A stretch of 64,000 bases of DNA. Origin: Escherichia coli (GTDB taxonomy: Bacteria > Pseudomonadota > Gammaproteobacteria > Enterobacterales > Enterobacteriaceae). The notes under the pieces were generated by a model. The model did not search any database and was not told the origin of the DNA. It saw only the letters and a program-made list of their open reading frames with translations. Shown in pieces: positions 18,805 through 52,758 of this stretch (its first letter is position 1; every line of letters starts with the position of its first letter). The translations under genes were made by a program, and so were the position numbers. The stretch lies in the NCBI RefSeq assembly GCF_003790525.1, contig NZ_CP033635.1. One strand, written 5' to 3'.

Positions 18805-20102
<1,298 letters not shown>

Positions 20103-20159
20103 TAAAAGAGAAGTTTGAACGAGACGACGCAATAGTTCAATAACTTGCTGGATACCTAA

Positions 20160-23387: not shown

Positions 23388-24532
23388 AAATCACCAAAAT
23401 TACCACGTATCGTTTACCTCCCCGCTGGATGTTCCTGAAAATTGAAACCGATGAAGGCGTGGTCGGCTGGGGCGAGCCCGTGATCGAAGGCCGCGCCCGT
23501 ACGGTGGAAGCGGCAGTTCACGAGCTGGGTGACTATTTGATTGGTCAGGATCCATCGCGCATCAATGACTTATGGCAAGTGATGTATCGCGCCGGATTTT
23601 ATCGTGGAGGTCCAATCCTGATGAGCGCCATTGCCGGGATCGACCAGGCGTTATGGGATATCAAAGGCAAAGTGCTGAATTCGCCGGTCTGGCAACTGAT
23701 GGGCGGCCTGGTGCGTGACAAAATTAAAGCCTACAGTTGGGTCGGCGGCGATCGTCCGGCGAATGTTATCGACGGAATAAAAATCCTGCGCGAAATCGGT
23801 TTTGATACCTTCAAACTGAATGGTTGTGAAGAACTGGGGCTAATTGATAACTCCCGCGCGGTAGATGCGGCGGTCAACACCGTGGCACAAATTCGTGAAG
23901 CTTTTGGCAATCAGATTGAGTTTGGTCTTGATTTCCACGGTCGCGTCAGCGCGCCGATGGCGAAAGTACTGATTAAAGAACTGGAACCGTATCGCCCGCT
24001 GTTTATTGAAGAGCCGGTGCTGGCAGAACAGGCCGAATACTACCCGAAACTGGCGGCACAAACGCATATTCCACTGGCGGCGGGTGAGCGCATGTTCTCA
24101 CGTTTCGATTTTAAACGTGTGCTGGAGGCGGGTGGTATTTCGATTCTGCAACCGGATCTCTCCCACGCAGGCGGTATTACCGAATGCTACAAAATTGCCG
24201 GAATGGCAGAAGCCTATGACGTGACCCTTGCGCCGCACTGTCCGCTCGGACCGATTGCACTGGCAGCTTGCCTGCATATCGACTTTGTTTCCTATAACGC
24301 CGTACTTCAGGAACAAAGTATGGGCATTCATTACAACAAAGGCGCGGAGTTACTCGACTTTGTGAAAAACAAAGAGGACTTCAGCATGGTCGGCGGCTTC
24401 TTTAAACCGCTAACGAAACCGGGCTTAGGCGTGGAAATCGACGAAGCTAAAGTTATTGAGTTCAGTAAAAATGCCCCGGACTGGCGTAATCCGCTCTGGC
24501 GTCATGAAGATAACAGCGTAGCAGAGTGGTAA
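23384..24532 (+). CDS. dgoD: D-galactonate dehydratase (enolase superfamily)
   Basis: 382 aa; enolase-superfamily blocks; start overlaps dgoA stop. Confidence 0.9.
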
Positions 24533-24651
24533 TTCCTGCCACGTAAGCCCCTCATCGGGCACTAAAACAGCAATACAAAAATATAACCCTCTGTAAATTA
24601 CAGGGCATGGTGAGCGGCTTCGCTATGCCCAAAATCAGGAGAAAGCTCGCT

Positions 24652-25944
24652 ATGGATATTCCCGTTAATGCAGCAAAGCCGGGGCGTCGGCGTTATCTGA
24701 CGCTGGTGATGATCTTTATTACGGTGGTCATTTGTTATGTTGACCGCGCTAACCTGGCCGTGGCTGCCGCCCATATTCAGGAAGAGTTCGGCATTACCAA
24801 AGCGGAAATGGGCTATGTATTTTCGGCCTTCGCCTGGCTTTATACGCTATGTCAGATCCCCGGCGGTTGGTTTTTAGATCGCGTAGGTTCACGCGTGACT
24901 TATTTTATTGCGATATTTGGCTGGTCAGTGGCGACGTTATTCCAGGGCTTTGCCACGGGATTAATGTCATTAATTGGTCTGCGCGCGATAACCGGTATTT
25001 TCGAAGCGCCCGCTTTCCCGACCAATAACCGGATGGTGACCAGCTGGTTCCCGGAACATGAACGCGCTTCTGCCGTTGGTTTTTATACGTCTGGTCAGTT
25101 TGTCGGTCTGGCGTTTCTGACTCCGCTGCTGATCTGGATTCAGGAGATGTTGAGCTGGCACTGGGTGTTCATTGTCACCGGTGGTATCGGCATTATCTGG
25201 TCGCTGATTTGGTTTAAGGTTTATCAGCCGCCGCGCCTGACCAAAGGCATCAGCAAAGCTGAACTGGATTACATTCGTGATGGCGGCGGTCTGGTGGATG
25301 GTGATGCGCCGGTGAAAAAAGAGGCACGTCAGCCGTTAACAGCCAAAGACTGGAAACTGGTGTTCCATCGTAAACTGATCGGCGTCTATCTTGGACAATT
25401 TGCGGTGACTTCTACACTGTGGTTTTTTTTGACCTGGTTCCCGAACTATTTAACCCAGGAAAAAGGAATCACGGCGCTGAAAGCAGGCTTTATGACCTCG
25501 GTACCATTCCTCGCGGCGTTTGTCGGCGTCCTGCTCTCTGGCTGGGTCGCGGATCTGCTGGTACGTAAGGGCTTTTCACTGGGCTTTGCGCGTAAAACGC
25601 CGATTATCTGCGGCTTGCTGATCTCCACCTGCATTATGGGCGCTAACTACACTAACGATCCGATGATGATTATGTGCCTGATGGCGCTGGCATTCTTCGG
25701 CAACGGTTTTGCTTCGATTACCTGGTCGCTGGTCTCTTCTCTGGCACCGATGCGCCTGATTGGTTTAACCGGTGGCGTATTTAACTTTGTTGGCGGTCTG
25801 GGCGGCATCACCGTTCCGCTGGTGGTGGGGTACCTGGCGCAGGGTTACGGTTTCGCACCTGCACTGGTTTATATCTCCGCCGTCGCGTTGATTGGCGCGC
25901 TCTCTTACATTCTGATGGTGGGCGATGTGAAGCGCGTTGGATAA
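24652..25944 (+). CDS. dgoT: D-galactonate:H+ symporter (MFS, anion:cation symporter family)
   Basis: start at [16 protein letters not shown] with AGGAG RBS; 430 aa MFS transporter. Confidence 0.88.
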
Positions 25945-27296: not shown

Positions 27297-28196
27297 CTAG
27301 CTATTCTCTTTAATGTTATTTCGTAAAATCGTCCAAAAGTGTTCAGCCGTTTTGTTCAGCCGAGTATCCATACGATAAATATAAGCCTGAATAGGCACTG
27401 CCCATTTAGCAGGCCACGGACACACAAGTCGTTTTGTGTTCAGTTCATCCGCGATTGACCAGAGAGGGAGCCAGGCAATACCAAGTCCATTGAGTGCCAT
27501 ATTTTTTAGTAGTTCACTCATTGAAGATACCAATATTGTGTGTCCGGCTATCCCTCCCTGTTCTGCCAAATGACGATTAACCAGTCTGCCCATATAAGAA
27601 GTTGGAGTATAGTCGAGCAAAGGAGCCTGTGAATTGGTAAGATCGAAAATCGGTTTTCCCTGTTGATCAGCAGCACATACCGGATACAACTCAGATTCAA
27701 ACAGTTTCATACAACAAAATGGCGATTGCATAAACTCCTCATCTCGAAATGAAATAATAAAGTCACTCTTCCCTTCTCGTAACGTATTTACGGCCTGGAC
27801 GACATCAATAGCCTCAACATGATAGATAAAGTCTCCGCCTAAGGTGGTGAGTGAGTGCAGAAGTTTAGGTAGCATGCTGAGGGATAATGAGTGCGCAGCT
27901 GCAATCTTAATATTAGGCAAATTGAATGAATTATCCCCCCCTAACTCATTCAGATTGCATTCAAGCTGTTGCACTAAACTGCGTGTCTGGGAGTGAAAAA
28001 GCCTACCCTCTTCAGTTAATTGTAAAGGAGAGGTTGTACGATCGAACAAAACAACACCTATAGCTGACTCTAACGCTTTTATTCGTCTGCTGAATGCTGG
28101 TTGTGAAAGGTTACGATCTTTTGCTGCCTGACAGAAATTGCGACAGGCTTCCAGTGTCAGGAAATCATATAACCATTTGGTCTCTATATTTTTCAT
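27297..28196 (-). CDS. LysR-family transcriptional regulator
   Basis: 299 aa; N-terminal LysR HTH (FLTLEACRNFCQAAKDRNLSQPAFSRRIKALE) and substrate-binding domain; divergent from racemase gene. Confidence 0.85.
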   Translation of the reverse strand: MKNIETKWLYDFLTLEACRNFCQAAKDRNLSQPAFSRRIKALESAIGVVLFDRTTSPLQLTEEGRLFHSQTRSLVQQLECNLNELGGDNSFNLPNIKIAAAHSLSLSMLPKLLHSLTTLGGDFIYHVEAIDVVQAVNTLREGKSDFIISFRDEEFMQSPFCCMKLFESELYPVCAADQQGKPIFDLTNSQAPLLDYTPTSYMGRLVNRHLAEQGGIAGHTILVSSMSELLKNMALNGLGIAWLPLWSIADELNTKRLVCPWPAKWAVPIQAYIYRMDTRLNKTAEHFWTILRNNIKENS

Positions 28197-28535
28197 TTCT
28201 ATTATCCAAGTATTATCAAATTTTAGTTAGTATACCCCCCGAAAACCGGGGTAATGAATGCAGATAGCATATTTAAGTTATTCGTTTTATGCATAATCCA
28301 TTCGTTTTCTGTATCTAAACCAGTTTAACACTTCTCCCAAAAGCGTTTATTTTCATCATTATGATAGGTCTTCATGCAACAATAGTATATGGTTCATGTA
28401 TATTGCAAAACTACATCATGCAAGTCTTGCATTGCATTGTACATCATTGCATTTCTCATAGCCTTTAGAGACTGTTAAAAAAGGAGAAATGGTTTTTTAA
28501 GTTTATGAGCATTGATTTTCTGAGAGGTAAGTATT

Positions 28536-29255
28536 GTGAAAGGTTTAATCGGTGTGCTCGGTGGAATGGGGCCGGCCGCCACTGTCGACTTATTTAATAA
28601 ATTTGTCACCTTTACAGCAGCACAACGAGATCAAGAACATATACCTTTAATTATTTCTTCTATCCCGGATATTCCTGACCGTACCGATGCATTAATGCAT
28701 AACGGGCTCTCGCCTTTACCCGTTATGCGTGACTATATGCATAAACTGGAAGATGCAGGAGCAGAATGTATTGTTATTCCCTGTAATACCGCACACTATT
28801 GGTTTAAAGAACTAAAAGATGCTTGCCATATTGATATACTAAGTATCATAGATACTACGGTCGATGAAGTTCGCGTCTGTGGTAAAACTAGAATTGGCCT
28901 CCTGGCCACTGATGCCACGCTGTATATGGGATTATACCAGAAAGGAATTGAATCGTTAGGGTTTAACTATATCACCCCGGATGCAGATGGCCAAAAAAAT
29001 GTGATGAAAAGCATTTATTCACTTAAAGCGGGAAATGTTACACATGCGCAAAAATTGATGGAAGAGCAGGCTGAAAATTTATTTTCCCGCGGAGCAGAGA
29101 TCTTGATTCTTGGTTGTACGGAAATTCCCATTATTCTGTCACAAGCCGTTAAAGATCAACCTTTACGCTATATTGATTCAACCGCTTCACTCGTTCGCGC
29201 AGGAATAAAATGGTATGAAAATCGTATCGGAAAAGATCAACATTTAACTCAATAA
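28536..29255 (+). CDS. Asp/Glu racemase superfamily protein (aspartate racemase YgeA-like)
   Basis: 239 aa; GGMGP and CNTAH..GCTE motifs resembling the Asp/Glu/hydantoin racemase family (paired catalytic Cys region). Confidence 0.75.
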   Translation: MKGLIGVLGGMGPAATVDLFNKFVTFTAAQRDQEHIPLIISSIPDIPDRTDALMHNGLSPLPVMRDYMHKLEDAGAECIVIPCNTAHYWFKELKDACHIDILSIIDTTVDEVRVCGKTRIGLLATDATLYMGLYQKGIESLGFNYITPDADGQKNVMKSIYSLKAGNVTHAQKLMEEQAENLFSRGAEILILGCTEIPIILSQAVKDQPLRYIDSTASLVRAGIKWYENRIGKDQHLTQ

Positions 29256-29313
29256 TTCTAAATCACAGCCAGAAAGTTATTTTACAAAGATTATATTTAC
29301 AACGGAGAACATC

Positions 29314-30612
29314 ATGGTTTGGCTGGAAATTATCGTTGTACTTGGCGCAATATTTTTTGGTATTCGTCAGGGAGGAATCGGCATTGGTTTATGCGGCGGT
29401 CTTGGCCTTGCGATCCTGACTCTGGGATTTGGTCTGCCTATGGGATCACCGCCAGTCGATGTGATCCTGATTATTATGACCGTAGTTGTGGCAGCTTCAG
29501 CCTTACAGGCGGCAGGTGGGATGGATTATCTGGTACGTTTAGCCAGTAATTTCATGCGACGTAACCCAAAATATATCAACATAATCGCACCGATTATCAC
29601 TTGGTTAATGACCATTATGGCCGGTACCGGGTTTATTGTTTTCTCCACACTGCCGGTAATTGCTGAAGTAGCAAAAGAGTCCGGTATCCGGCCTTCCCGC
29701 ACACTCGCTGGCTCAGTTGTCGCCTCACAGGTTGCAATTTCTGGCTCACCAATCAGTGCCGCAATGGCAGCTATGCTCACTATTATGGAGGTTAATGGCG
29801 TCAGTTTTATTCAGGTGATGTCGGTATGCCTTCCCACCTCTTTTGTCGCCGCGATGGTTGCTGCTTTTATCGCCTCCCGACAGGGGTGTGAATTACAAGA
29901 TGACGAAGTATATCTTGAACGTCTGCAAAAAGGTCTGGTGCAAAAATACGAGAATAATAACAGCATCAAACCTGGTGCAACGCTTTCCGTCGGATTATTC
30001 ATGCTGGCGACGATCGCCATTGTTATTCTTGCTGCATTCCCCCAATTGCGTCCGGGTTTTGATATCAGCAAACCGATGGAAACGCGCGATATTATTATTA
30101 TTTGCATGCTCTCTGCTGCCTGCCTGATGGTAATACTGTGTAAGATGTCTACTGATGACATTATTCTGACCTCCACATTTCGTGCTGGAATGAGTTCGCT
30201 GGCAGTGATTCTTGGTATTGTAACCTTAGGTACCACCTTTATTGATGCGCATTTAACTGAGATCAAAGATATCGCTGGTGATATTTTACAAACTTATCCG
30301 ATGCTTTTAGCATTAGTTCTTTTTTTTACCTGCGCTTTACTTTACTCACAGGGAGCGACTACGCCGTTAATTATTCCTCTGGCTGTAGCACTCAACATAC
30401 CAACCTGGGCAATTCTTGCATCTTATGTTGCCGTTACGGGAGTATTCGTGCTTCCAACGTATCCAACATCACTCGCCGCGATGGAATTTGATACTACCGG
30501 CACAACCCGTGTGGGCAATTATTTATTAAATCACCCATTTATGCTACCCGGGTTGGGTGGTGTTATTGCAGGAGTGACATTTGGGTTTGTGATTGCACCA
30601 ATGATGGTCTGA
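29314..30612 (+). CDS. Dcu-family anaerobic C4-dicarboxylate transporter (second, divergent paralog)
   Basis: 432 aa; same family blocks as 258-1592 (NPKYI, LPTYPTSLAA, EFDTTGTTRVGN) but a clearly different sequence. Confidence 0.85.
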   Translation: MVWLEIIVVLGAIFFGIRQGGIGIGLCGGLGLAILTLGFGLPMGSPPVDVILIIMTVVVAASALQAAGGMDYLVRLASNFMRRNPKYINIIAPIITWLMTIMAGTGFIVFSTLPVIAEVAKESGIRPSRTLAGSVVASQVAISGSPISAAMAAMLTIMEVNGVSFIQVMSVCLPTSFVAAMVAAFIASRQGCELQDDEVYLERLQKGLVQKYENNNSIKPGATLSVGLFMLATIAIVILAAFPQLRPGFDISKPMETRDIIIICMLSAACLMVILCKMSTDDIILTSTFRAGMSSLAVILGIVTLGTTFIDAHLTEIKDIAGDILQTYPMLLALVLFFTCALLYSQGATTPLIIPLAVALNIPTWAILASYVAVTGVFVLPTYPTSLAAMEFDTTGTTRVGNYLLNHPFMLPGLGGVIAGVTFGFVIAPMMV

Positions 30613-30834
30613 TAGAATCATAATTTTCATTCTTTATGGAAGTAGTTACAGAGTTACTATTTGATAATTAGTCAGGCAGTTAATCTGCATTCAGTTACTG
30701 ACTGTCAGAAGAATTCTGACAGATTGATATCACATGTTATTTCAATGATGTAAGAATTCAAATTCCGAGAGCATAGCTCCGGTTAAACAATTTGTTATTG
30801 TCACATTGTTTTCAAATAATGGAGTTAGAATATT

Positions 30835-32235
30835 ATGTCTCGTATTGAAAGCGATTTCCTTGGTGAGCGTGAAATTCCGGATGATTGCTATTATGGTGTT
30901 CAGACACTTCGTGGAAAAGATAATTTCCATATCACTGAAATGCCAATGAGTCAGGAGCCTTTCTTCATCATTGCCTTCGGTTATGTGAAAAAAGCAGCTG
31001 CGATGGCTAATAAGGAGTTAGGTACAATTCCTGCTGATGTTGCGGATGCTTTAATCTGGGCTTGCGACCAATTAATTGATGGTAAGTACCGGGAACAGTT
31101 TGTGACCGACTGGCTTCAGGGGGGAGCCGGAACGTCAACCAATATGAACTGCAATGAAGTGATTTGTAATCTTGCTGCAGAAAAACTTGGTAGCGTTAAA
31201 GGGGATTACAAACGCGTTTCGCCAAACGACCATGCTAATTTTGGTCAGTCCACCAATGATACATATCCGACAGCATTACATCTGGCATTGCTGCTGCGAA
31301 GCAATGTATTGCTTGAAGCTGTTGAACACCTCGTAGGAGCATTCTACAAAAAGGCTGACGAGTTCAGCACAGTGCTCAAGATGGGACGTACTCACCTGCA
31401 GGATGCAGTGCCAATGACTCTCGGCCAGGAGTTCCATGGCTGGGGTTTTACAATTAATGATGAAATTCGGGTCATCCGTAATGCACAGGAACACCTGCGG
31501 GTTGTAAACCTTGGTGCTACTGCGATTGGTACCTGTGTTACCGCTCACCCGGATTATCCCGCTTTAGCCGTGAAATATCTGGCCCAGATCACAGGCATTA
31601 ATTTCAGGAACAGTGAAGATCTCATCGCTGCCACAAGCGACTGTGGTGCATATGTTGCACTCAGTTCGGCCATGAAGAGCCTCTCTGTGAAGCTTACCAA
31701 GGTTTGTAATGACATTCGACTGCTTGCTTCAGGCCCCCGTTGCGGCCTGGCTGAAATTAACCTGCCTCAATTGCAACCGGGTTCTTCCATTATGCCTGGT
31801 AAGGTTAACCCCGTTATCCCGGAAGTAACAAACCAGTCTTGCTTCCTGGTTCAGGGGCTGGACACCACAGTGATGCTGGCGGCATCTGCTGGTCAGCTTG
31901 AGCTTAACGTTATGGAGCCGGTCATCACCTTTGCGCTGTTCACCTCACTCAAGGTGATGACGAATGCCTGTAACACACTCCGAACTAAATGCATTGATGG
32001 CATTACAGCTAATTCCGATCGAACTGCAGAGATGGTAATGCATTCCTGCGGTATTGTGACTCTCCTGAAGCCACATCTGGGATATAAGGTGTGTTCTGAA
32101 ATGGCGCACGAAGCATACCATACAGGCAAATCCCTCCATCAGATAGTGGTTGTCGAACGTAAGCTACTCACACAGGAAGAATGGGAGAAGACATTCAATC
32201 TGGATAATCTGATTGCTCCGAAGTTCGAACAATAA
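30835..32235 (+). CDS. aspartate ammonia-lyase / class II fumarase family protein (copy B)
   Basis: 466 aa, differs from copy A at about 2 residues (V14I, E28K); about 50 bp of upstream sequence is also shared. Confidence 0.88.
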   Translation: MSRIESDFLGEREIPDDCYYGVQTLRGKDNFHITEMPMSQEPFFIIAFGYVKKAAAMANKELGTIPADVADALIWACDQLIDGKYREQFVTDWLQGGAGTSTNMNCNEVICNLAAEKLGSVKGDYKRVSPNDHANFGQSTNDTYPTALHLALLLRSNVLLEAVEHLVGAFYKKADEFSTVLKMGRTHLQDAVPMTLGQEFHGWGFTINDEIRVIRNAQEHLRVVNLGATAIGTCVTAHPDYPALAVKYLAQITGINFRNSEDLIAATSDCGAYVALSSAMKSLSVKLTKVCNDIRLLASGPRCGLAEINLPQLQPGSSIMPGKVNPVIPEVTNQSCFLVQGLDTTVMLAASAGQLELNVMEPVITFALFTSLKVMTNACNTLRTKCIDGITANSDRTAEMVMHSCGIVTLLKPHLGYKVCSEMAHEAYHTGKSLHQIVVVERKLLTQEEWEKTFNLDNLIAPKFEQ

Positions 32236-32239
32236 AATG

Positions 32240-33175
<936 letters not shown>

Positions 33176-33179
33176 TGTT

Positions 33180-33670
33180 CTAAGGTGAGCATATTACCTA
33201 TGCTCAGGTGGCCAAATTCAGTATGCCAGAACCAGAACATCTTGTGGTCAGGCAGAGGAAGAGCAAACTGTTACTGGACTCACTGCATGCGTGGATGGTG
33301 GAGAAAAATGCCACGCTGTCCAAAAATCCAGACTGGGAGAATGGTTCAGCTGTGTACTGAATCAGTGGGGCGCACTCTGTTATTACAGTGTTGACGGTCA
33401 GGCGGAGGCAGACATAATGCCGCGGAAAAAGCCCTTTGTGCCATCTGTCTCGGAAATAAAAACTTTATGTTCTTCGACGGCGAGCGCAGTGCACTGTTGT
33501 ATGGGCTTATCGGCACTTGCCTTCTGAACGACATTGATCCGGAAGAGTATCTGCGCCATATCCTGAGCGTACTGCCGGAATAACCTTCCAACCGTATTGA
33601 TGAACTCCTGCCATGGAACGTAGTTCTCACCAATAAATAAGCATCAATATGATTCTCCATTAACGCTTAC
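33180..33670 (+). mobile_element. IS66-family transposase C-terminal fragment with IS66 right end
   Basis: translation NQWGALCYYSVDGQAEADN..LCLGRKNFMFFDGERSALLYGLIGTCLLNDIDPEEYLRHILSVLPEWPSNRIDELLPWN typical of IS66 TnpC C-terminus; a related end copy is at 59829-60010. Confidence 0.7.
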
Positions 33671-33778
33671 CTTTTCTCAGGCTATTTTTGATTTTTTTTG
33701 CTTTTCCCCGCCACTTTATGGTGATTATCACATCAATATACATCGACAGATATTAACGTAACTGAAGTGAGGTGAAGC

Positions 33779-34993
33779 ATGAAATTTGAACGCCATCATG
33801 AAATATTGAAACGACTCAGTAAATTCGGTTCTGTAAAAGTATCCGATCTGTCCAATAGCCTCAATGTAACGAAAGAAACTATTCGATCAGATCTTAATGA
33901 ACTTGCCAGACTTGGCTATCTGACTCGATGTCATGGCGGTGCTTTTATCGTCCTAGACTCGCTTGATACTATTGCGAAAAATGAAATCGCTTATGCGCTT
34001 GAAAATTATGATACAGCCCAGGGAATAAAAAAAGGCCACTCAACTATGAAAAGTCAAGTATGCGTTATTGGTTCGTTTAATGTTGATATCATCAGTTATT
34101 TGCCGAGGCTTCCCACTATCGGAGAATCGCTTCTGGCAAGTAATTTTATATTTTCACCGGGGGGAAAAGGTTGTAACCAAGCGCTGGCAGCAAGCTTTGC
34201 CGATACTGATGTTTATTTCATAACAAAAGTAGGTACAGATCACTTTAGTGATTATGCGATCAACTTTATGAATTCGTCTAAGATTTATAAAAGTATAATT
34301 TATCAAACGAAAGAAACGCAAACCGGAACTGCCACGATCCTTGTTAATGAAGGTACTGGCGATAATGTTATTGCGATCTATCCCGGTGCCAACATGACAA
34401 TGTCGTCCGATGAAATAACTATTCAGAAAGAAGCGATTATTAATTCTGATGTCATACTTCTGCAGCTCGAAACAAATTATACCGCTCTGCAACAAGCGAT
34501 CACATTGGCGCAAAAAAACAGTATCCCGGTCATTATTAACCCGGCACCCTATAATGATATCGTCAACGAACTTATTCAGGATGTTGATTATATCACCCCC
34601 AATGAAACAGAAGCTGGTTTACTGTCCGGCATAGACGTACACGATCTTGAATCAGCTAAACGAGCTGCAGAAGCTATCCACAATAAAGGGGTAAAAAACA
34701 CGGTTATCACGCTCGGTAGCAAGGGCTCACTCGCATTTGATGGCAAAAAATTCATTCATTCGCCAGCGTTTCCAGCGGTCGTTAAAAATACGGCAGGAGC
34801 CGGGGATGCTTTTAACGGCGCTCTGGCATCAGGACTTGCGAAAGGAAAATCACTGGAATCAGCACTGTGTTATGCCAGTGCCTTTGCATCCCTGGCGGTG
34901 GAGACAAGCAATGCTTCCGACATGCCTGAACATGAATCTGTGATACATCGAATTCAGAGTATACATTATCAGCAAACTATTTTTACGCATTAA
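33779..34993 (+). CDS. fusion protein: N-terminal DeoR-type HTH domain and C-terminal PfkB/ribokinase-family carbohydrate kinase
   Basis: first about 60 aa HEILKRLSKFGSVKVSDLSNSLNVTKETIRSDLNELARLGYLTR (DeoR HTH); remainder has ribokinase-family motifs (GGKG.NQA, NTAGAGDAFNGAL). Confidence 0.75.
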   Translation: MKFERHHEILKRLSKFGSVKVSDLSNSLNVTKETIRSDLNELARLGYLTRCHGGAFIVLDSLDTIAKNEIAYALENYDTAQGIKKGHSTMKSQVCVIGSFNVDIISYLPRLPTIGESLLASNFIFSPGGKGCNQALAASFADTDVYFITKVGTDHFSDYAINFMNSSKIYKSIIYQTKETQTGTATILVNEGTGDNVIAIYPGANMTMSSDEITIQKEAIINSDVILLQLETNYTALQQAITLAQKNSIPVIINPAPYNDIVNELIQDVDYITPNETEAGLLSGIDVHDLESAKRAAEAIHNKGVKNTVITLGSKGSLAFDGKKFIHSPAFPAVVKNTAGAGDAFNGALASGLAKGKSLESALCYASAFASLAVETSNASDMPEHESVIHRIQSIHYQQTIFTH

Positions 34994-35006
34994 GAAGGGA
35001 CAGAGA

Positions 35007-35765
35007 ATGAATAACACCAAAAAATCACTAAAGGTGCTCTTTATTGGAGAATCCTGGCATATTCATATGATTCATTCAAAAGGATATGACAGTTTTACCT
35101 CAAGTAAATATGAAGAAGGTGCGACCTGGTTACTCCAATGTCTGAAAAATAGTCAGGTAGATGTCACCTATATGCCGGCACATACGGTACAAATTGCCTT
35201 CCCTGAAGATGTGGCACAGTTAGAACAATATGATGCCATCGTTATTAGTGATATTGGTAGTAATACTTTCCTGCTACAAAATGATACTTTTTATCAGCTT
35301 CGCATAAAACCAAACGCTCTCGAACTGATTAAAGAATATGTGAATAACGGTGGTGGGTTATTGATGATTGGCGGCTATCTCTCATTCATGGGAATTGAAG
35401 CAAAAGCCAATTATAAAAATACAGTTCTGGCTGATGTGCTCCCGGTTACGATGTTAGATGGTGACGATCGTGTCGAAAAACCAGAGGGTGTTATTGCACA
35501 GCCATCACAACCTGACCATCCGGTTATTAAAGGGTTCTCTGAATATCCTTTTTTCCTAGGTTATAACCGGGCGATCGCTAAAGAAAATGCTGAGGTGGTA
35601 TTAACAATAAACAACGATCCATTACTGGTCTTTGGTAACTATCACAACGGGAAAATAGCCTGCTTTATGAGTGACTGTTCACCGCACTGGGGTACACAGC
35701 AGTTTATGTCCTGGCCGTTCTATACCGCGTTGTGGGTAAATATACTGACTCATATTGCAAGATAA
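35007..35765 (+). CDS. hypothetical protein, possibly class I glutamine amidotransferase-like fold
   Basis: 252-aa ORF directly after the kinase gene; assignment from weak pattern only (LLMIGGY, CFMSDCSPHW). Confidence 0.45.
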   Translation: MNNTKKSLKVLFIGESWHIHMIHSKGYDSFTSSKYEEGATWLLQCLKNSQVDVTYMPAHTVQIAFPEDVAQLEQYDAIVISDIGSNTFLLQNDTFYQLRIKPNALELIKEYVNNGGGLLMIGGYLSFMGIEAKANYKNTVLADVLPVTMLDGDDRVEKPEGVIAQPSQPDHPVIKGFSEYPFFLGYNRAIAKENAEVVLTINNDPLLVFGNYHNGKIACFMSDCSPHWGTQQFMSWPFYTALWVNILTHIAR

Positions 35766-35821
35766 TAATAATAATGGGGTAACACCAGTTACTCCATTTA
35801 CTATAATAGAAGGATTGATGT

Positions 35822-36787
35822 ATGAAAAAGAATAAGTACTCAACTCCCTTATGGATGCTTGCCACGATTCTTGCGGGTATGCTCTCCCCTATGCAATCAG
35901 CGGTGAATGGTCAATTAGGTCACTGGTTACAGGACGGTAATGCATGCGCAGTTATCTCCTTTGCCAGTGGTTTAGTCGTGATGTTTTTTATTATTATGGC
36001 GCGAAAAGAAACCCGGCAACAATTTGCGGCAATTCCTTCTCTGATTAAAAACCGAAAAGTTCCTCTCTGGAACTGGTTTGCCGGTCTCTGTGGAGCGATG
36101 GTGGTATTTTCTGAAGGCGCATCAGCCAGCGCACTCGGGGTCGCAACGTTTCAGACCGCACTGATCTCCGCGCTATTGCTGTCTGGTTTACTTTGCGATC
36201 GCTTTGGTATCGGTGTCGACGAGAAAAAATACTTTACCCCTTATCGCATCATCGGTGCATTATTTGCGGTTATTGCTACGATTTTTGTTGTGTCACCGCA
36301 GTGGCATTCTACCTCTTTCATTTTACTTGCCATTCTTCCGTTCTTAGCTGGTTTGCTTGCAGGATGGCAGCCCGCTGGAAATGCAAAAGTAGCTGAAGCT
36401 ACGGGATCCATGCTGGTTTCAATCACCTGGAATTTCATCGTTGGATTTTGTGTTTTAGGCACAGCGCTAGCTATTCGTGTCGCATTAGGGCACGTCACTG
36501 TTCAATTACCAGATGTCTGGTGGATGTATCTTGGCGGCCCGCTTGGACTAATGTCTATCGGTTTAATGGCCATTTTGGTCAGAGGTCTTGGGTTACTGAT
36601 GCTGGGGGTTGCTTCAACGGCGGGCCAGTTACTGGGATCAGTATTGATTGACGTATTAATTCCATCGCTGGGCAATACCGTTTATCTGGTCACGATCATC
36701 GGAACACTGTTTGCACTGGTCGGTGCAATTGTTACCACTATTCCGGAATACAGAGCCTCGAAAACAATGAAGAAAATGGAGGTATAA
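35822..36787 (+). CDS. DMT-superfamily membrane transporter (YdcZ/DUF606-like, duplicated 5-TM units)
   Basis: 321-aa hydrophobic ORF with internal repeat architecture. Confidence 0.6.
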   Translation: MKKNKYSTPLWMLATILAGMLSPMQSAVNGQLGHWLQDGNACAVISFASGLVVMFFIIMARKETRQQFAAIPSLIKNRKVPLWNWFAGLCGAMVVFSEGASASALGVATFQTALISALLLSGLLCDRFGIGVDEKKYFTPYRIIGALFAVIATIFVVSPQWHSTSFILLAILPFLAGLLAGWQPAGNAKVAEATGSMLVSITWNFIVGFCVLGTALAIRVALGHVTVQLPDVWWMYLGGPLGLMSIGLMAILVRGLGLLMLGVASTAGQLLGSVLIDVLIPSLGNTVYLVTIIGTLFALVGAIVTTIPEYRASKTMKKMEV

Positions 36788-36789
36788 TC

Positions 36790-37824
36790 ATGAAAGATTA
36801 TCTACAAACTGTGACGGGCCCCGTCGCCCGTGAAGATATGGGGCTAACACTTCCTCATGAACATCTGTTCAACGATCTTTCCTCTGTTGTGGATGCTCCT
36901 TGCTATCCTTTTTCACAACGGCTTGTTGATAAAAAAGTCACGGCAGAAATCCAGTGGGCATTAAAACACGATCCTTATTGCTGCGCTGATAATATGGACC
37001 GCAAACCTATTGAAGATGTGATCTTCGAAATTAATAACTTTATCTCGCTCGGTGGTCGCACCATTGTTGATGCCACAGGGTCTGAGTCTATCGGACGAGA
37101 TGCGCAGGCATTACGAGAAGTCGCATTAAAAACAGGTCTGAATATTGTTGCTTCCTCCGGTCCCTACCTGGAAAAATTTGAAAGCCAGAGAATTCATAAA
37201 ACGGTTGATGAACTAGCGACAACGATCGATAAAGAATTGAATCAAGGGATTGGCGATACGGATATTCGTGCCGGAATGATCGGTGAAATAGGTGTCTCAC
37301 CGACATTTACCGAAGCCGAGCATAACAGCTTGCGGGCTGCCTCGCTGGCACAGATTAACAATCCTCATGTGGCGATGAATATTCACATGCCGGGCTGGCT
37401 TCGTCGCGGTGATGAAGTACTCGACATTGTGTTAGGTGAAATGGGCGTCTCGCCAAATAAAGTCTCTCTCGCACACTCGGATCCGTCAGGAAAAGACGTG
37501 GCGTATCAGCGGAAAATGCTTGATAAAGGTGTCTGGCTGGAATTCGACATGATTGGCCTAGACATTACCTTCCCGAAAGAGGGAATAGCGCCAGGGGTGC
37601 AGGAGACTGCCGATGCCGTCGCTCATCTCATTGAGTTGGGATACGCCGATCAGCTTGTTCTCAGCCACGATGTCTTCCTTAAACAAATGTGGGCTAAAAA
37701 TGGCGGTAATGGCTGGGGATTTGTTCCAGATGTTTTTCTGGCCTATCTGGCGGAGCGCGGCGTCGATAAAACGATCCTCAAAAAACTCTGTATCGATAAT
37801 CCCGGACGATTATTGACCGCATAA
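36790..37824 (+). CDS. phosphotriesterase-homology protein (amidohydrolase superfamily; putative lactonase/esterase)
   Basis: 344 aa; N-terminal metal-binding motif TLPHEHL and later HxH/D blocks resembling the PTE/Php family. Confidence 0.75.
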   Translation: MKDYLQTVTGPVAREDMGLTLPHEHLFNDLSSVVDAPCYPFSQRLVDKKVTAEIQWALKHDPYCCADNMDRKPIEDVIFEINNFISLGGRTIVDATGSESIGRDAQALREVALKTGLNIVASSGPYLEKFESQRIHKTVDELATTIDKELNQGIGDTDIRAGMIGEIGVSPTFTEAEHNSLRAASLAQINNPHVAMNIHMPGWLRRGDEVLDIVLGEMGVSPNKVSLAHSDPSGKDVAYQRKMLDKGVWLEFDMIGLDITFPKEGIAPGVQETADAVAHLIELGYADQLVLSHDVFLKQMWAKNGGNGWGFVPDVFLAYLAERGVDKTILKKLCIDNPGRLLTA

Positions 37825-37833
37825 AACCATTAT

Positions 37834-37856
37834 CCCCCGGCACATTGCGCCGGGGG
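37834..37856. terminator. bidirectional hairpin (CCCCCGGCACATTGCGCCGGGGG) between the PTE-like gene and the ggt fragment
   Basis: perfect 9-bp GC-rich stem. Confidence 0.5.
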
Positions 37857-37859
37857 ATG

Positions 37860-38200
37860 TCAATTAATACCCCGCCGTTAAATCATCCACCAAGCGCGAG
37901 TCGGATGCGCCGTACAACTCACCATCCGACCCAACCATAATGCTTTGCGTGCTGCCCATCGCCTCATTCAGCGCCACTTTCTGACCTTTTGCTTCCAGCA
38001 GCTTGAGCGTATCCGGACTAAACCCTTTTCAACACGCAGCTCGTCCGGCAACCACTGATGGTGGAAACGAGGCGCATTGGTCGCTTCGGCAACATTCATT
38101 CCACAATTGATGCTGTTCACCACCATTTGCGGCACGGTAGTGATGATCCAGCTACCGGTAACAAAGTGAGTACATAAAGGCCATACTGTCACGAACAGTG
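37860..38200 (-). pseudogene. ggt: gamma-glutamyltranspeptidase 3' fragment (C-terminal about 110 codons only, frameshifted)
   Basis: minus-strand translation MNVAEATNAPRFHHQWLPDELRVEKG then FSPDTLKLLEAKGQKVALNEAMGSTQSIMVGSDGELYGASDSRLVDDLTAG matches the Ggt C-terminus as recalled; no upstream part. Confidence 0.75.
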
Positions 38201-38475
38201 CAAAAGTGGCTCTTCCTCAACCTAGGTGAAGATTTTCATGCCAGTGGACTCATTACCCTCCGCCTAAGTAGTTCAAGTCCGGCTCGACCATACATCTGGC
38301 GTATCAGCACCTTCAGGCGATTTACATGACCTTCGACAACACCAGTACTCCAGCGACTGCTGATTGCCTCACATATAGCCGCAGCATCAGCTTCCATCCC
38401 CGCAGCTACGCACCGAAGTTCTGCTGAGCCGCTTTCGTGGACCCGAGTGAACCAGCTGCTTAGCTGTGATTTATT

Positions 38476-39855
38476 TTAGGTTTTCAGAATACGGTAGAAC
38501 TCGAGTACCAGTTGCTGCGCTATTTTCAACTCCGGTTCTTTTTCACACATCAGACTAATAAATCGGAAAGCATAATTTTCTCCACCCCTGATTATTCTCC
38601 AGGGCATCAACCAGCGGCTTACCCGGGACACTGAAGGAAGTCTTGCGGCAGTAGTAACCGGTGGGATCCAGCCTTTATGCCATTTGGCAACAGCATCCCT
38701 GACGATGGTTTCACTGCCTGTAACCCCCCTGGCCACCATTTCCCGCCATATCCGGCCGGAGTTATAATTACCACATTCTCGTTGCTCTTTTAACCACTCC
38801 CTCCATGGGTCCAGAAGCCCTCGCTTTGGAGGCCTGGTTGACATTTCAGGGAATGTTCCTGAACCCACCCAGCGACTGACTGTCACTCGCGACAGGCCTG
38901 TAATACGGGATATTTCCCTGAAACTACATCCCTTGTTATGCAGGGCCATAACCTCTGTCCAACGCTGATGCCGTTTTTTGCGGATGTGCTGTTTAAGGCG
39001 TTCCAGACGACGGAGCGATGCTACAGGCACAGATATTTCTGGCTCAGGTGATTTCTTCAGTGATAACTCTCTGACAACAAGACGTATCAGAGGCATATGT
39101 CTGTACATCATTCGTTCAGGCTCATCACCAATATTTTTTAGCAGGTGCCATCGATCGGCCACCTGTCTGGCCTGAGGTGCACCTTCACGTGCTGCTGTCG
39201 CATAGACTCCACTGCGATCACGCGAGACAACCTGTATTTCCGGATATTTTCTGAACCAGGTCGCCAGCGTACGCTGATCACGGCCGGGAAGCAGGACGAG
39301 GGGACGGTGAGTATCAGGATTGACTATTAACATACCGCAGCAGTGGCCCCGATGCCACGCCCACTCATCAATACCGACATGAGGCGCGCCTGACTGTTTC
39401 GTCTCCGGGGTATTGATAAGCCTGCGAAGAAGAGTATCAGCACTGCAACGGAGACCCACTGCCGTTGCAGCCCGTTTTCCAGCCTCACCTCCAGCTATTA
39501 ATCCCAGTTGACATTGTTAATTTTGTAACGCCTGTGAAGACTGCTGGTGTGAACTGGCGAAGGGAGCAAGCGACTCGGCAAAAATTTTACGTGAACAAGC
39601 CGGGTTACGGCAGTACCAGTGGCGGACGGAAAATACAAGCCATAGCGTCTGCCCTGAGCAGGGTAGATGCTGTATCCGGCGCCGACGACAACTATGAACA
39701 GAGTCGCTACGCTTAAAGCATTCAGGACATTGTGCTGTTTTGCGTTTTCCGTGGAGATGGAGGGTTATACCGTCAGAGCTAATAATTTGTCGACTGCATC
39801 GCCATCCGCAAGGTAACTGTAGAAGTGTCTTAAGAGAGTGCATTGCGTTGCCCAT
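38476..39855 (-). pseudogene. transposase with ISL3-like zinc-finger and DDE signatures, frameshifted (39517-39855 N-terminal part; 38476-39459 C-terminal part)
   Basis: N-terminal CPECF..YCRNPACSRKIFAE zinc ribbon; GIDEWAWHRGH..VVSRDRSGVYA..QVADRWHLLKN DDE region; domain order atypical, family assignment tentative. Confidence 0.5.
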
Positions 39856-40138
39856 AACTTAAAACAGCTTAGATCCTTGTTCGCCAGAAAGTTTCATCCA
39901 TTTTCTTCCACCCAGGTTGCGGAAGAACCACTTTTCATCCGTCGTTGACAGATGTGAAGTATGCGGGAGAAAAAGTGAATATCTAACTGTAATAACTCAG
40001 ACCGGTACGAGTACTCGGGACGTCTACAATCATTCAGGGCAAAGTGCTAAAATTTCTCTATCCCGGGATGCCCCTACCAACGCAGCACTCCCGGAGATAT
40101 CATTACAGCTCTGCAACTGATTTCCGCGACTGAACCGC

Positions 40139-40546
40139 TCAGTTCCTATCCTTCCAGTTGCCCTCCTGCCCCCCCTCCCTGCTGTATACCCCGGTACCAC
40201 AACTCGGGCAGCACTTTTCCCCCTCATAATTTTCGTCACACATCACACAAAACCACTTTCTCACCTTCACCGTATAATCCGGAACCGTCATACCCTGCAG
40301 ATGCAAACGACGGGCCTCTTTCTCTGCCGGGTCAAGCCAGGTGCATCGCAGCAGGATTTTCTCAGCGACAGTCATCTGGTCATGTTCAAACCACGGTGGT
40401 TGTCCGTCATTGCCCCGCTGAAGTGTTAACGGGCATCCACAGGACACACAGCACAAAACGTCCTGGCGGTTGTGCTTCGCTGCTTCTTTCGCCGTAACAA
40501 AATGGCCTTTGCTGTCATTCGCCATATAACAGTTCAGAATTCGCAT
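40139..40546 (-). CDS. zinc-ribbon hypothetical protein (paralog 2; motifs CxxC..PWFEH..CxxC)
   Basis: paralogous to the adjacent upstream ORF; two Cys pairs flanking a conserved WFEH motif; start taken at MRILN. Confidence 0.5.
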   Translation of the reverse strand: MRILNCYMANDSKGHFVTAKEAAKHNRQDVLCCVSCGCPLTLQRGNDGQPPWFEHDQMTVAEKILLRCTWLDPAEKEARRLHLQGMTVPDYTVKVRKWFCVMCDENYEGEKCCPSCGTGVYSREGGQEGNWKDRN

Positions 40547-40941
40547 ATTTCCTCCTGAGTTGTCCGGGGAATACTGAATCCTCCGGTCTGGCAGTGTGTG
40601 CAGTACCGCTCCCCATAATAATCGTGGTGACATTGTCTGCAGTGCCAGCTGGCTTTACGCACCACGGGTAAGGCATCCGGTACGAATTGCTGCAGACGTT
40701 TAATCAACTGTATTTCTCTGCGCTCCGGCCTGACATAAGGGCACTGTTGACCGTGCTCTGTCAGCCTGTCGTCAGTGTGTTCAAACCAGGGAAGTTCAGT
40801 GTCGTATTGCGGATGGTATCTGAGTGCACTGCCACACAAGTGGCAGGTGTAGTTAGCATAAGGTGCGGCCTGTGCAGTACGGGCGCCCGTCAGACGTCCG
40901 TTGCCATCAAGAGCGATAAAGGATTTTGCGTACATAGTCAT
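40534..40941 (-). CDS. zinc-ribbon hypothetical protein (paralog 1; motifs CxxC..PWFEH..CxxC)
   Basis: 135 aa; CHLCG..PWFEHTDD..CRQCHHDYYGERYCTHCQ. Confidence 0.5.
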   Translation of the reverse strand: MTMYAKSFIALDGNGRLTGARTAQAAPYANYTCHLCGSALRYHPQYDTELPWFEHTDDRLTEHGQQCPYVRPERREIQLIKRLQQFVPDALPVVRKASWHCRQCHHDYYGERYCTHCQTGGFSIPRTTQEEICEF

Positions 40942-41194
40942 ATTCCTCAGCCGCCAGACGACACGCAGGCAACAGCCGTCCCGGTACGGGCAGCGTGGTC
41001 AGGGTGTGAATGGCGGTTCAGTTAAAATCTGGACTGGAGTTTGGGTAAAGCAGGCTGGTTGCTGTTACAGCACTGTGGTTGTCACACAATGGAACACTGA
41101 CGTAAAAAACAGTCAGTGGGCGAGTGGATACATCGTTGCCGCCAGACAACAACCCATACTTTTGGTTTGCCGGGTATTGGCGCGCCAGTCGTGC

Positions 41195-41764
41195 TCAACT
41201 CCGGCTACAGCCAAAATTGCGCTCACCGGTGCAGTGAGCTTTGGTATGTTCCTTCGCCAGATAGTCAGCACGTTCCAGCACCTGCTGAAAGCCAGTGTCA
41301 TCATCGCGTTCCAGCCACACCGCCGGCCAGGCCGGAAAATGCACCAGCGTGGCATGGCACCCGACATCCACTCCCAGGGCACTGCACCACGCCTGTTTAA
41401 TCATCCCGGCCAGTGATCCCGGAGCACGGTAATCACCGGCACGACACCAGGTATCCCGGTTAACCAGCAGCATCAGGTGATAGTGTTTTTTACCTTTGCA
41501 CTCCCCAAACTCCCGGGCCCAGACGTAATGCAGGGTTGTGGGATGCACGCGTTTACCTTCCCGATGCTTACGTTTCTGGTAAGCGTCGATTCGGGCTTTC
41601 AGGGCATTGATGAAGCGGGATATCACAGCTGCGTCCGTTGCTGCCGGTACATCCGGGAAACGCAGGTCAACCCGCAATGCCGTCAGGCGGGGATGAACAT
41701 TCAGTGCGTGCCGCACCGTCTCACGAATACGTTGCTGCCAGAAGGGGTTGTATTTGTAGGTCAT
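41195..41764 (-). CDS. YagK/YfjJ-family (inovirus Gp2-like) protein, putative
   Basis: 189 aa from MTYKYNPFW with GGAG RBS; family assignment from context and pattern (HYHLMLLVN), tentative. Confidence 0.45.
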   Translation of the reverse strand: MTYKYNPFWQQRIRETVRHALNVHPRLTALRVDLRFPDVPAATDAAVISRFINALKARIDAYQKRKHREGKRVHPTTLHYVWAREFGECKGKKHYHLMLLVNRDTWCRAGDYRAPGSLAGMIKQAWCSALGVDVGCHATLVHFPAWPAVWLERDDDTGFQQVLERADYLAKEHTKAHCTGERNFGCSRS

Positions 41765-41960
41765 GGTTAAATCTCCGTATGGTTCATACGGAATAGCCAC
41801 GTCGTAAAAAATGCGCAGAGTCCCTGAAGTGACCTCCGGCAGGACACTGTCTCAGGCACTCTGTGATAACCCGAACGGTCGTCTCCGGACTGACGGTTGA
41901 ATTTTCAGCGTTGTTTTTTTAATGTAAAAAACCGGTTACGGGTAAGGCTGTGAGGAGGGA

Positions 41961-50361: not shown

Positions 50362-52758
50362 ATGCACGAAAAGAACATCGCCCTGCTTTGTGATGAAGCC
50401 GACCGACTTTTGCAACTGAACATTAATCTGCTCCGGCAAATGGTTGAGGAGCCAGATGTGTTATCTGACAGTAAGAACGAAAACAGACTGCTTTTTGATA
50501 AACAGAAAGCACTGAAAAGAATTGAGGAGCTGGAGGGCGAACAAATCAAAACCGCCCGCAGGGAGATGGTGCTGGCTGTTGTCGGCACGATGAAAGCAGG
50601 CAAATCAACCACCATCAACGCCATTGTGGGGCAGGAAATTCTGCCTAACCGTAACCGCCCCATGACCTCTGTACCGACGCTCATCCGCCACGTTCCCGGA
50701 AAAACTGAGCCGGTTCTCCATCTGGAACATATTCAGCCTGTCCGCAATTTATTAATCACACTGCAGGAAAAACTCGCCACCCCGGCAGGACAGCAGGTCG
50801 CACAGACCCTGCAGCAAACCGGGGATACCCGCGAACTGCTGGATATTCTGACGGATGATGGCTGGCTCAAAAATGAATACCACGGGGAGGAGGAAATCTT
50901 TACCGGACTGGCATCGTTAAACGATCTGGTTCGTCTTGCTGCGGCAATGGGGACTGAATTTCCTTTTGATGAATACGCAGAAGTGCAGAAACTGCCGGTG
51001 ATCGACGTGGAATTCAGCCATCTGGTGGGGATGGATGCATGCCAGGGAACACTCACACTGCTGGATACCCCCGGCCCTAATGAGGCCGGACAACCGCAGA
51101 TGGAAGTGATGATGCGGGATCAACTGCAGAAAGCCTCTGCGGTTCTGGCTGTGATGGATTACACCCAGATGAACTCAAAAGCGGATGAAGACGTCCGTAA
51201 AGAGCTTAATGCCATTGCTGACGTATCAGCCGGCCGCCTGTTTGTACTGGTCAATAAATTTGATGAGAAAGACCGCAATGGCGATGGGGCAGATGCCGTA
51301 CGCCAGAAAGTTCCGGCAATGCTGAACAGCGATGTGCTGCCCGCCTCCCGCGTTTATCCCGGATCCTCACGCCAGGCATACCTGGCTAACCGTGCGCTTC
51401 ATGAGTTACGGAAAAACGGAACCCTTCCTGTTGATGAAGCCTGGGTCGATGATTTTATCAGAGGTGCCTTCGGTTGCATGAAAAAAGAATACGTCTGTAA
51501 AGACAGTGAACTGGCAACTGAAGGGGCGACAGACCTGTGGGAAGGCTCACTTATCGATCAACTGATAACGGAAGTCATACAGAGCTCACATTCCAGAGCT
51601 GCGGCACTGGCGGTTGACTCTGCCGCCGCAAAACTGATGCAGAATGCAGAAAATATCAGTGAATACCTGTTGTTACGCCATCAGGGGCTACAGCAAAGCA
51701 TTCAGTCACTGCAGTCGCATATCACCAGCCTGCTTGCGGATATCCGGGAAATCGCGGACTGTCAGGAGCAGATGACCACTGATGTCAGAATGGCCATGGA
51801 GGAGATCGATACTAAAACCCGGGAATTACTGACGGGGGTCTGCACCTCACTGGAAGAGGAGCTGAATGACTATTTCAGAAGCGGTAAACGCAAAGAACAG
51901 CAAATGCTGGAGGAAGAAGACGCAGAACAACGAAGGTCTCAGTCCGGATTATGGGGGAAAATTTCTCAATGGTCCGGTATCAACAACCAGGGCCGGGAGG
52001 ATTACAGGAAACGAGATTTTGCCCCGGACAGCCCCGAAATAAAATTCAGTGATCGCAGGGAAGCCCTTGAACTGATGACGCAAATCGAATCGACCGTGAC
52101 CAGCCTGCACCGTGAGGCTGAAGCACAGTTCCGGCCTGAGCTGGAGAAAATCGTCAGCGGGATTGAAACAGGTTTTCGTGGCACGGCCCTGTACGCCACA
52201 GAAAACATTGCCGGTCGCATCAATGCCCGCCTGGAGGATGAGGGCTTTACCGTAAAAATCAGTTTTCCGGCAGTCAGCCAGTTACAGACCCGGCTCGCGG
52301 TAAAAATAAATCTGAGTGCGCTTATGGAGGAAAGAACGGAGACCGTCACCCGTCGCCGTCGGCAGAGTGGCGTATGGGGAACCGTTTGTCGATGGTTTGG
52401 CACCAGTGACCTGGGCTGGGAAAACTATGACGAGGATGTGAGTCGCAGCGTGATCAATATCAACAAGGTCAGAGAGGAAGTTATGTCACTGACCCGGGCA
52501 TATTTCGGGGAGCTGCAGGCATCCATTGAGCAGGATATTAACCAGCCCGTCCGCCAGGAAATCGATGCCTTTTTCTGCGCATTCAGGGAGAAAGTTGAAC
52601 AACTGCGTAACACGCTGATTCAGAGCTCTGAAGATCATAAACGCGATCAGCAGGCGCAGGAACGGCTTACCGGGCGACTTCAGGCATTAAATGAAAGGGT
52701 TCCTGAGCTCATTACTGACAGTAAGGCGCTGAGGGAAGAGCTGGAGACAATGCTGTGA
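50362..52758 (+). CDS. dynamin-like GTPase (bacterial dynamin-like protein; CrfC/YjdA paralog)
   Basis: 798 aa; AGGAAGG RBS; P-loop GTMKAGKST (G75-S82), G3 LLDTPGPNEAGQ, G4 VLVNKFDE; N-terminal 330 aa closely parallel K-12 YjdA/CrfC as recalled; long coiled-coil C-terminal half. Confidence 0.85.
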   Translation: MHEKNIALLCDEADRLLQLNINLLRQMVEEPDVLSDSKNENRLLFDKQKALKRIEELEGEQIKTARREMVLAVVGTMKAGKSTTINAIVGQEILPNRNRPMTSVPTLIRHVPGKTEPVLHLEHIQPVRNLLITLQEKLATPAGQQVAQTLQQTGDTRELLDILTDDGWLKNEYHGEEEIFTGLASLNDLVRLAAAMGTEFPFDEYAEVQKLPVIDVEFSHLVGMDACQGTLTLLDTPGPNEAGQPQMEVMMRDQLQKASAVLAVMDYTQMNSKADEDVRKELNAIADVSAGRLFVLVNKFDEKDRNGDGADAVRQKVPAMLNSDVLPASRVYPGSSRQAYLANRALHELRKNGTLPVDEAWVDDFIRGAFGCMKKEYVCKDSELATEGATDLWEGSLIDQLITEVIQSSHSRAAALAVDSAAAKLMQNAENISEYLLLRHQGLQQSIQSLQSHITSLLADIREIADCQEQMTTDVRMAMEEIDTKTRELLTGVCTSLEEELNDYFRSGKRKEQQMLEEEDAEQRRSQSGLWGKISQWSGINNQGREDYRKRDFAPDSPEIKFSDRREALELMTQIESTVTSLHREAEAQFRPELEKIVSGIETGFRGTALYATENIAGRINARLEDEGFTVKISFPAVSQLQTRLAVKINLSALMEERTETVTRRRRQSGVWGTVCRWFGTSDLGWENYDEDVSRSVININKVREEVMSLTRAYFGELQASIEQDINQPVRQEIDAFFCAFREKVEQLRNTLIQSSEDHKRDQQAQERLTGRLQALNERVPELITDSKALREELETML

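Follow-up and report, generated by a model that had tools for sequence, protein, structure and literature searches.

A decayed 3' end of ggt beside a rikA-STM3550-type operon on the cobU-yeeX island of Escherichia coli

Gene content of the locus

The window considered here, a stretch of 64,000 nucleotides of Escherichia coli DNA (contig NZ_CP033635.1 of assembly GCF_003790525.1), carries dacD and sbmC at its 3' end and contains, within a mobile cobU-yeeX island, a four-gene operon, the broken end of a gamma-glutamyltransferase gene (ggt) and a decayed insertion sequence (IS). Together with a conserved region of ~95 bp upstream of its first gene, the operon occupies 33684-37824 on the plus strand and appears, from blastn colinearity and the PGAP and NCBIfam assignments, to be a captured module. 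It starts with a DeoR-PfkB kinase gene (33779-34993), the homologue of rikA (STM3547), and continues on the same strand with a glutamine-amidotransferase-like gene (35007-35765), a DMT transporter gene (35822-36787) and a phosphotriesterase-related (PTE) gene (36790-37824), which adjoins the ggt remnant; all four were identified by PGAP and NCBIfam. These genes are homologous to, and collinear with, the four genes of the Salmonella cluster rikA(STM3547)-STM3548-STM3549-STM3550. Ribose-kinase activity has recently been shown for the first gene of this cluster, the other three being uncharacterised, and its conservation extends to Citrobacter, Escherichia, Budvicia and Proteus; ggt is not mentioned in its description (PMC13432705).

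Upstream of the kinase gene, positions 33700-33779 are strongly conserved among E. coli, Citrobacter and Salmonella and contain a T-rich tract and a near-palindrome, GGTGATTATCAC(A)ACAATATAC, a region that could be a candidate operator for the DeoR-type N-terminal domain of the kinase. Further to the left, the module is bordered by IS debris, namely a transposase pseudogene (~32471-33161) and the C-terminal fragment of an IS66-family transposase (~33223-33583), whose coordinates were obtained by converting the PGAP annotation of the identical sequence in SMS-3-5 and KFu014 to window numbering. The left breakpoint of the module lies somewhere within 33584-33684, homology to Citrobacter and Salmonella beginning at 33684, and the IS66-family debris thus stops at most ~100 bp from the module's left edge.

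Between the stop codons of the PTE gene and of ggt, a terminator scan detected a GC-rich hairpin (37832-37858, minus strand) with a stem of 12 pairs, nine of which are G-C. Only on the minus strand, the strand of ggt, does a partly T-rich tail, AATGGTTTTA, come after it; the hairpin is therefore predicted to be the remnant's own ggt terminator. The remnant itself shows contiguous homology to ggt at 37864-38157 on the minus strand, corresponding to nt 1448-1743 of the 1743 nt of the gene, that is, codons 484-580 and the stop codon, which lies at 37864-37866. In blastn searches with this region, which included one of 5,426 complete E. coli genomes, native K-12 ggt (b3447) was matched at 92.5% identity over 295 nt (E = 2e-117), and a local alignment of the two sequences gave 92.9% identity, with 21 substitutions (12 synonymous and 9 non-synonymous) and one 1-bp gap. 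The frame-repaired peptide matches the Ggt profile NF007187 at positions 485-581 of 581 (E = 3e-56) and, in PDB 2dbu_B, the last 97 of the 190 residues that make up the E. coli GGT small subunit (residues 94-190, E = 1e-52). The fragment is thus a piece of ggt (PF01019 / NF007187) by sequence homology, as the preliminary description had it, rather than a member of a different protein family. Its profile score of 190.8 bits falls far under the cutoff of 990 set for whole proteins, as no more than 17% of Ggt is left.

The homology is split across two minus-strand frames, no uninterrupted frame being left. The cause is a 1-bp deletion in a homopolymer, A5 to A4 on the coding strand, seen as T4 at 38026-38029 of the window. 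Five further bases, up to 38162, can be aligned by placing a 12-bp deletion between two direct repeats GCTACCG; on these five extra matching bases, the remnant probably reaches 38162, and the deletion would probably take PGGS out of the motif TGSPGGSRI. In GGT, the GSPGGS stretch holds the oxyanion-hole residues Gly483-Gly484. With homology beginning at codon 484, or at ~478 with the 12-bp deletion, the remnant is not a complete precursor. Missing from it are the signal peptide, all of the large subunit and residues 1-93 of the small subunit, among them Thr391, the N-terminal nucleophile that serves in both autoprocessing and catalysis. Lacking Thr391 and the large subunit, it is therefore incapable of encoding an active enzyme, and as judged from its coding content the stub is without enzymatic function. 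Its identity, minus-strand orientation and frameshift agree with the preliminary description, whereas its length of ~97-102 codons is somewhat less than the about 110 given there. The remnant is an ordinary pseudogene, already known from the RefSeq/PGAP annotation of the annotated island records examined, in which 37864-38156 is labelled 'gamma-glutamyltransferase; frameshifted; incomplete; missing N-terminus'.

On its other side, the remnant is separated by 24 bp of filler, AAAGTGAGTACATAAAGGCCATAC (38163-38186), from a decayed ISEc38-like element of 1764 bp (38187-39950, minus strand) with the termini TGTCA...TGACA. The filler shows no homology to ggt of K-12, Citrobacter or Salmonella, nor to the flank of plasmid ISEc38, and no second copy of it was found within the window; the other E. 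coli island copies with which it was compared, three in number (L085, L001 and L004), carry it unchanged. The element belongs to the ISL3 family by both its transposase homology and its terminal inverted repeats, which are imperfect (43 nt, 77% complementarity, ~38186-38228 and ~39909-39951). Its transposase pseudogene (38236-39855, minus strand) has two internal stops on translation, and NCBIfam NF033550 matches both pieces of the open reading frame. The position of the fragment between the PTE-like operon and an ISL3-like transposase pseudogene had thus been described correctly.

End to end, over 1764 bp, the IS is ~95% identical in nucleotide sequence to a plasmid ISEc38 that has an intact transposase and is annotated as 'ISL3-like element ISEc38 family transposase', and the two share their termini. 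Unlike the plasmid copy, the element of the window has two in-frame stops and stays fixed at its site in ~2,800 genomes, and is a fossil rather than an active element. Neither an intact transposase nor a target-site duplication, the two marks of a simple insertion, was found: no 8-bp duplication surrounds the IS, its flanks GGCCATAC and GATGTGAA being different. The plasmid copy used for comparison is likewise without a target-site duplication, so that this absence does not discriminate between mechanisms. On that plasmid, pCR-0260_1 (L003, 2868-4669), the intact ISEc38 adjoins a truncated and frameshifted psiE; elements of the ISEc38 family may often be located at deletion boundaries. The papers found on ISEc38 are resistome and mobilome surveys and hold nothing informative here. 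To the right of the IS, the island backbone (39951-41800) carries, by PGAP annotation and on the minus strand, two zinc-ribbon genes (40139-40633 and 40534-40941) and an inovirus-Gp2-family gene (41195-41800).

Conserved neighbourhood of the operon and ggt in Citrobacter and Salmonella

The surroundings of the operon in other bacteria were surveyed by searching the PTE protein against one genome per species and by scanning the best ~80 of the 113 resulting loci with K-12 Ggt by tblastn. Within this set, ggt lies beside the PTE homologue only in the four closest loci, which are those of two Citrobacter sp. (L005, L007), C. portucalensis (L008) and Salmonella enterica subsp. diarizonae (L006), and by the same tblastn it is absent from the PTE loci of Klebsiella, Proteus, Providencia and Budvicia. 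In all four, ggt is found ~50 bp downstream of the PTE homologue and convergent with it. The gene is full-length in the three Citrobacter loci (580-581 aa, 92% amino-acid identity to K-12 Ggt; 1298 bits against NF007187, whose cutoff is 990), while in S. diarizonae the adjacency is the same and the locus examined ends inside ggt, with residues 413-580 covered.

A single colinear blastn alignment, from 33684 to 38157 of the window, joins the operon, the intergenic region and the ggt remnant to each of the four loci at 76-77% nucleotide identity, and the PTE protein is 85-88% identical to its Citrobacter and S. diarizonae homologues. The ~95 bp upstream of the first operon gene are conserved in Citrobacter and Salmonella. 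The intergenic hairpin also occupies the same position in both genera, with a different sequence, and K-12 ggt has a different hairpin. As judged from these alignments, the PTE-ggt junction is one of conserved synteny, with no rearrangement at that point. Compared with the core locus of Salmonella and Citrobacter (yhhY-rikA-STM3548-STM3549-STM3550-ggt), the segment in the window is alike in gene order and orientation, in the convergent ggt, in the position of the hairpin and in the region upstream of rikA; it differs in lying within the mobile cobU-yeeX island, in having ggt cut at codon ~478 by an IS, and in that its ggt part is nearer to Escherichia than to Citrobacter or Salmonella. Thus, the preliminary description, which took the fragment for a boundary, was right at the side of the IS, the true breakpoint being the ggt'-IS junction only (38158-38186), and not at the side of the PTE gene, where the junction is ancestral.

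The wider Citrobacter context, as read with NCBIfam, consists of a YhhX-type oxidoreductase, a YhhY-type acetyltransferase, the operon, Ggt, YhhA (DUF2756) and UgpQ. In K-12, ggt-yhhA-ugpQ is colinear with the Citrobacter loci beginning at the ggt stop codon, and where Citrobacter has the operon, K-12 has tssD/yhhZ, yrhA, IS1, yrhD and yrhB. K-12 ggt lies between yrhB and yhhA-ugpQ, which bears out the earlier remark that it is not near the yeeX-dacD region.

Divergence of the remnant and its distribution in E. coli

Among the matches listed, the identity of the remnant to native E. coli ggt alleles ranges from 90.8% to 92.9%, the latter being that of the closest native allele. Its identity to Citrobacter and Salmonella ggt is 81-82%, as compared with 83-84% for K-12 ggt. 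The position of the remnant, at 92.9% to K-12 ggt and 81-82% to the two other genera, points to a donor in the Escherichia lineage. A divergence of ~7% is typical between Escherichia species; part of it in the present case would be decay after inactivation, which makes the donor's distance uncertain. When the 21 differences were scored against the ggt of three Citrobacter genomes and one Salmonella genome (295 nt, four outgroup genomes), 10 proved to be derived on the branch of the fragment and 4 on that of K-12 ggt, 7 being ambiguous. Seven of the nine amino-acid changes are fragment-derived (R486W, L492P, D500N, K547N, P560S, P570S and S572L), as would be expected for decay. At the 4 sites derived in K-12, the fragment keeps the Citrobacter/Salmonella state, Met503 being one example, which suggests that it split from the E. 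coli ggt lineage before these four changes and is not a recent duplicate.

An intact, longer second ggt was not found in E. coli: nt 1000-1430 of the gene match 5,431 places in 5,423 genomes, and all best matches are at least 95% identical to native K-12 ggt. Among the matches listed, the remnant is not near-identical to any native allele, as a scar of the resident gene would be. The donor was also sought with the frame-repaired 99-aa peptide in a database of 5.8 billion proteins, where only short Ggt fragments of 79-97% identity and no full-length candidate were found. No representative of another Escherichia species appears among the best ~80 of the 113 PTE-bearing loci.

The junction of PTE, ggt' and IS occurs in ~2,508-2,527 of 5,426 complete E. 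coli genomes (~47%, at a query coverage of at least 80%), and that of the IS with the backbone in 2,802. Set against the 2,527, this leaves roughly 275 genomes with the IS-backbone junction alone, and with the PTE gene in 2,699 genomes, roughly 170 have that gene and lack the ggt'-IS junction. Among the matches listed, every carrier of the junction has a second match, and non-carriers match only ggt, at 90.8-92.9%. The PTE gene is at least 99% identical in 2,680 of 2,700 E. coli records and represents a single low-diversity allele; no divergent allele at the native locus was found in E. coli, all matches being at least 95% identical. Since the junction is present in SMS-3-5, 042 and JJ1886, it would predate the spread of the island within E. 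coli.

Island copies are at least 98.7% identical to each other. Divergence along the junction was judged from one divergent copy, that of APEC E123 (L085), in which the PTE gene, ggt', filler, IS and backbone are 98.8-99.8% identical to the window in segments longer than 100 bp, the remnant standing at 99.0% and its flanks, including the dead IS, at 99.3-99.4%. The copy of the remnant in JJ1886 has gained one more internal stop, and in 042 and APEC E123 the PTE gene is truncated at its 5' end by an IS3-family element, the ggt'-IS junction remaining intact. This population pattern fits an old, neutrally drifting scar. APEC E123 (L085, 2929-4964) and 042 (L087, 3139-5174) have a short island, in which the IS3-family pseudogene lies at most ~3 kb after cobU and the rest of the rikA-type operon is gone.

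Origin of the stub and its island setting

Most probably, the stub represents what decay has left of the 3' end of another ggt gene, which travelled as flanking DNA of a rikA-STM3550-type operon. The remnant's identity and extent, the conserved synteny, the distribution among genomes and the polarised divergence are observed; the sequence of steps, the part played by the IS and the donor we infer as follows. In the donor chromosome, the operon would have stood between yhhY and ggt and convergent to the latter, as it still does in Citrobacter and Salmonella, and a segment of ~4.5 kb, from ~95 bp upstream of the operon to ggt codon ~478, would have moved into the cobU-yeeX island, where it came to be bounded by IS66-family debris on the left and by the ISEc38-like element on the right. 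The right cut was probably IS-associated, arising either by insertion into ggt with an adjacent deletion or by recombination between IS copies; the lack of a target-site duplication together with the 24-bp filler favours these two routes over simple insertion, the mechanism being read from a single decayed IS copy. Lost in this event would be the whole large subunit and, from the small subunit, its first half together with the catalytic Thr391, after which the stub may have decayed through the 1-bp deletion, the probable 12-bp deletion and several radical replacements. The donor presumably belonged to the Escherichia lineage and yet lay outside the sampled diversity of E. coli. No tRNA gene that might mark an integration site was found within the window.

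It had been proposed from the sequence that the fragment records a past rearrangement joining distant E. coli loci, a rearrangement or deletion within the chromosome having placed part of the resident ggt (77 min) beside the yeeX-dacD region. The distance of K-12 ggt from yeeX-dacD, the nearness of the fragment to E. coli ggt among the sequences compared, and its abutting an IS without target duplication are all in keeping with such an origin, but the carriers listed have a second match and ggt upstream of the breakpoint is single-copy, the divergence amounts to 7% with four states kept that K-12 ggt has lost, the PTE-ggt arrangement is syntenic with Citrobacter and Salmonella down to the intergenic hairpin, and homology to K-12 ends at the ggt stop codon. 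The proposal is contradicted by these observations and is very improbable; likewise, the BLASTN search that was expected to lead to the intact source locus does find native ggt, which is not the source. Nor is the stub's persistence readily explained by a function, whether the remnant were to act as terminator or 3'-UTR of the operon, give rise to an antisense or small RNA, or encode a small protein (a 74-aa ORF, for instance, lies at 37968-38192). The remnant has been retained in ~2,500 genomes, its hairpin is preserved, and the junction has outlasted truncation of the PTE gene; however, in L085 it differs about as much as its flanks with their dead IS, a further stop has arisen in JJ1886, a T-tract comes after the hairpin solely on the ggt strand, and no promoter-like site was found in 37600-38400, while the radical replacements and the loss of the GSPGGS motif argue against a role as protein. 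Retention for function is thus extremely improbable, and the hairpin, acting as a terminator downstream of the operon, would at most be the only candidate for a residual role.

Closer to the preferred reading is an origin within the E. coli lineage, in which an ancient duplicative IS event copied the lineage's own operon and ggt', and the operon at the native site was later replaced by yhhZ-yrhA-yrhB, no foreign donor being needed. The two readings disagree on the donor alone. The fragment does group with E. coli ggt and not with that of Citrobacter or Salmonella, K-12 has the unrelated tssD/yhhZ, yrhA, yrhD and yrhB in the place of the Citrobacter operon, and the absence of other Escherichia representatives with the operon from the PTE loci scanned accords with it as well. 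Against this stands the fact that the island copies are at least 98.7% alike and yet 7% from native ggt, from which it follows that the duplication must predate the diversification of E. coli severalfold, on an island that is both mobile and uniform; in addition, the PTE gene, at least 99% identical in 2,680 of 2,700 records, fits recent spread better. We consider such a purely vertical relic rather unlikely. Also doubtful, although a tentative case can be made for it, is that the module of the window preserves, as a molecular fossil, the yhhY-ggt locus as it stood in ancestral Escherichia, copied with its ggt stub to the island by an IS. If this were true, the operon would have been lost at its native site on the way to E. 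coli, where yhhZ/tssD-yrhA-yrhB now stand, and would survive in the species only on the cobU-yeeX island, having spread to about half of it; the stub would then locate and roughly date this rescue, at a depth near the divergence between Escherichia species.

Gene remnants truncated by an IS are common where island modules end, and the ggt stub alone matters little. Taken as the mark of a second, carried-in ggt, it points to the source of the poorly understood rikA-STM3550 operon of E. coli, a ggt-adjacent core locus as in Salmonella and Citrobacter, and suggests that E. coli acquired the operon on a mobile segment bounded by ISs and not vertically at that site. What is added to the PGAP annotation is small and concerns provenance, that is, the former chromosomal address of the operon. 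The case also advises caution with automated calls of 'rearrangement', as a fragment resembling a distant resident gene can be a diverged foreign or ancient copy, which may have been carried in with its old neighbour. Moreover, the ggt'-ISEc38 junction is a stable marker of an island family found in ~47% of complete E. coli genomes.

The cobU-yeeX island (CP4-44 site) is, like other mosaic genomic islands, a patchwork in which IS debris and incomplete genes stand between one metabolic module and the next; unlike the usual remnants at module borders, the ggt stub can be assigned to a specific ancestral neighbour, since the source-type locus survives in sister genera. The name 'GI-CFT073-cobU' was found in the literature only in a tool comparison. 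At 21222-25944, the window contains an additional galactonate-utilisation operon, dgoR-dgoK-dgoA-dgoD with an MFS transporter, which stands between two pseudogenes, IS66 tnpB and IS200/IS605 tnpA; it has the look of a second captured metabolic module bounded by ISs and is presumably a paralogue of the native dgo operon. Immediately to the left of the IS debris at the border of the rikA-type operon, a further module (27297-32235) encodes an Asp/Glu-racemase-family protein, an anaerobic C4-dicarboxylate transporter (Dcu), an aspartate ammonia-lyase homologue (AspA-like) and, on the minus strand, a HypT-like LysR regulator, and in SMS-3-5 an IS3-family element overlaps and truncates the 3' end of the aspartate ammonia-lyase gene. 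A 90-bp ORF fragment at 20054-20143 is labelled by PGAP as 'molecular chaperone GroEL, missing N-terminus'; by eye, its translation seems to us unlike the Gly-Met-rich C-terminus of GroEL, and the label may be weak. Downstream of a YeeP-like GTPase gene, the island backbone encodes a dynamin-family protein, an RdcB-family diguanylate-cyclase regulator and a patatin-like phospholipase (50362-54727).
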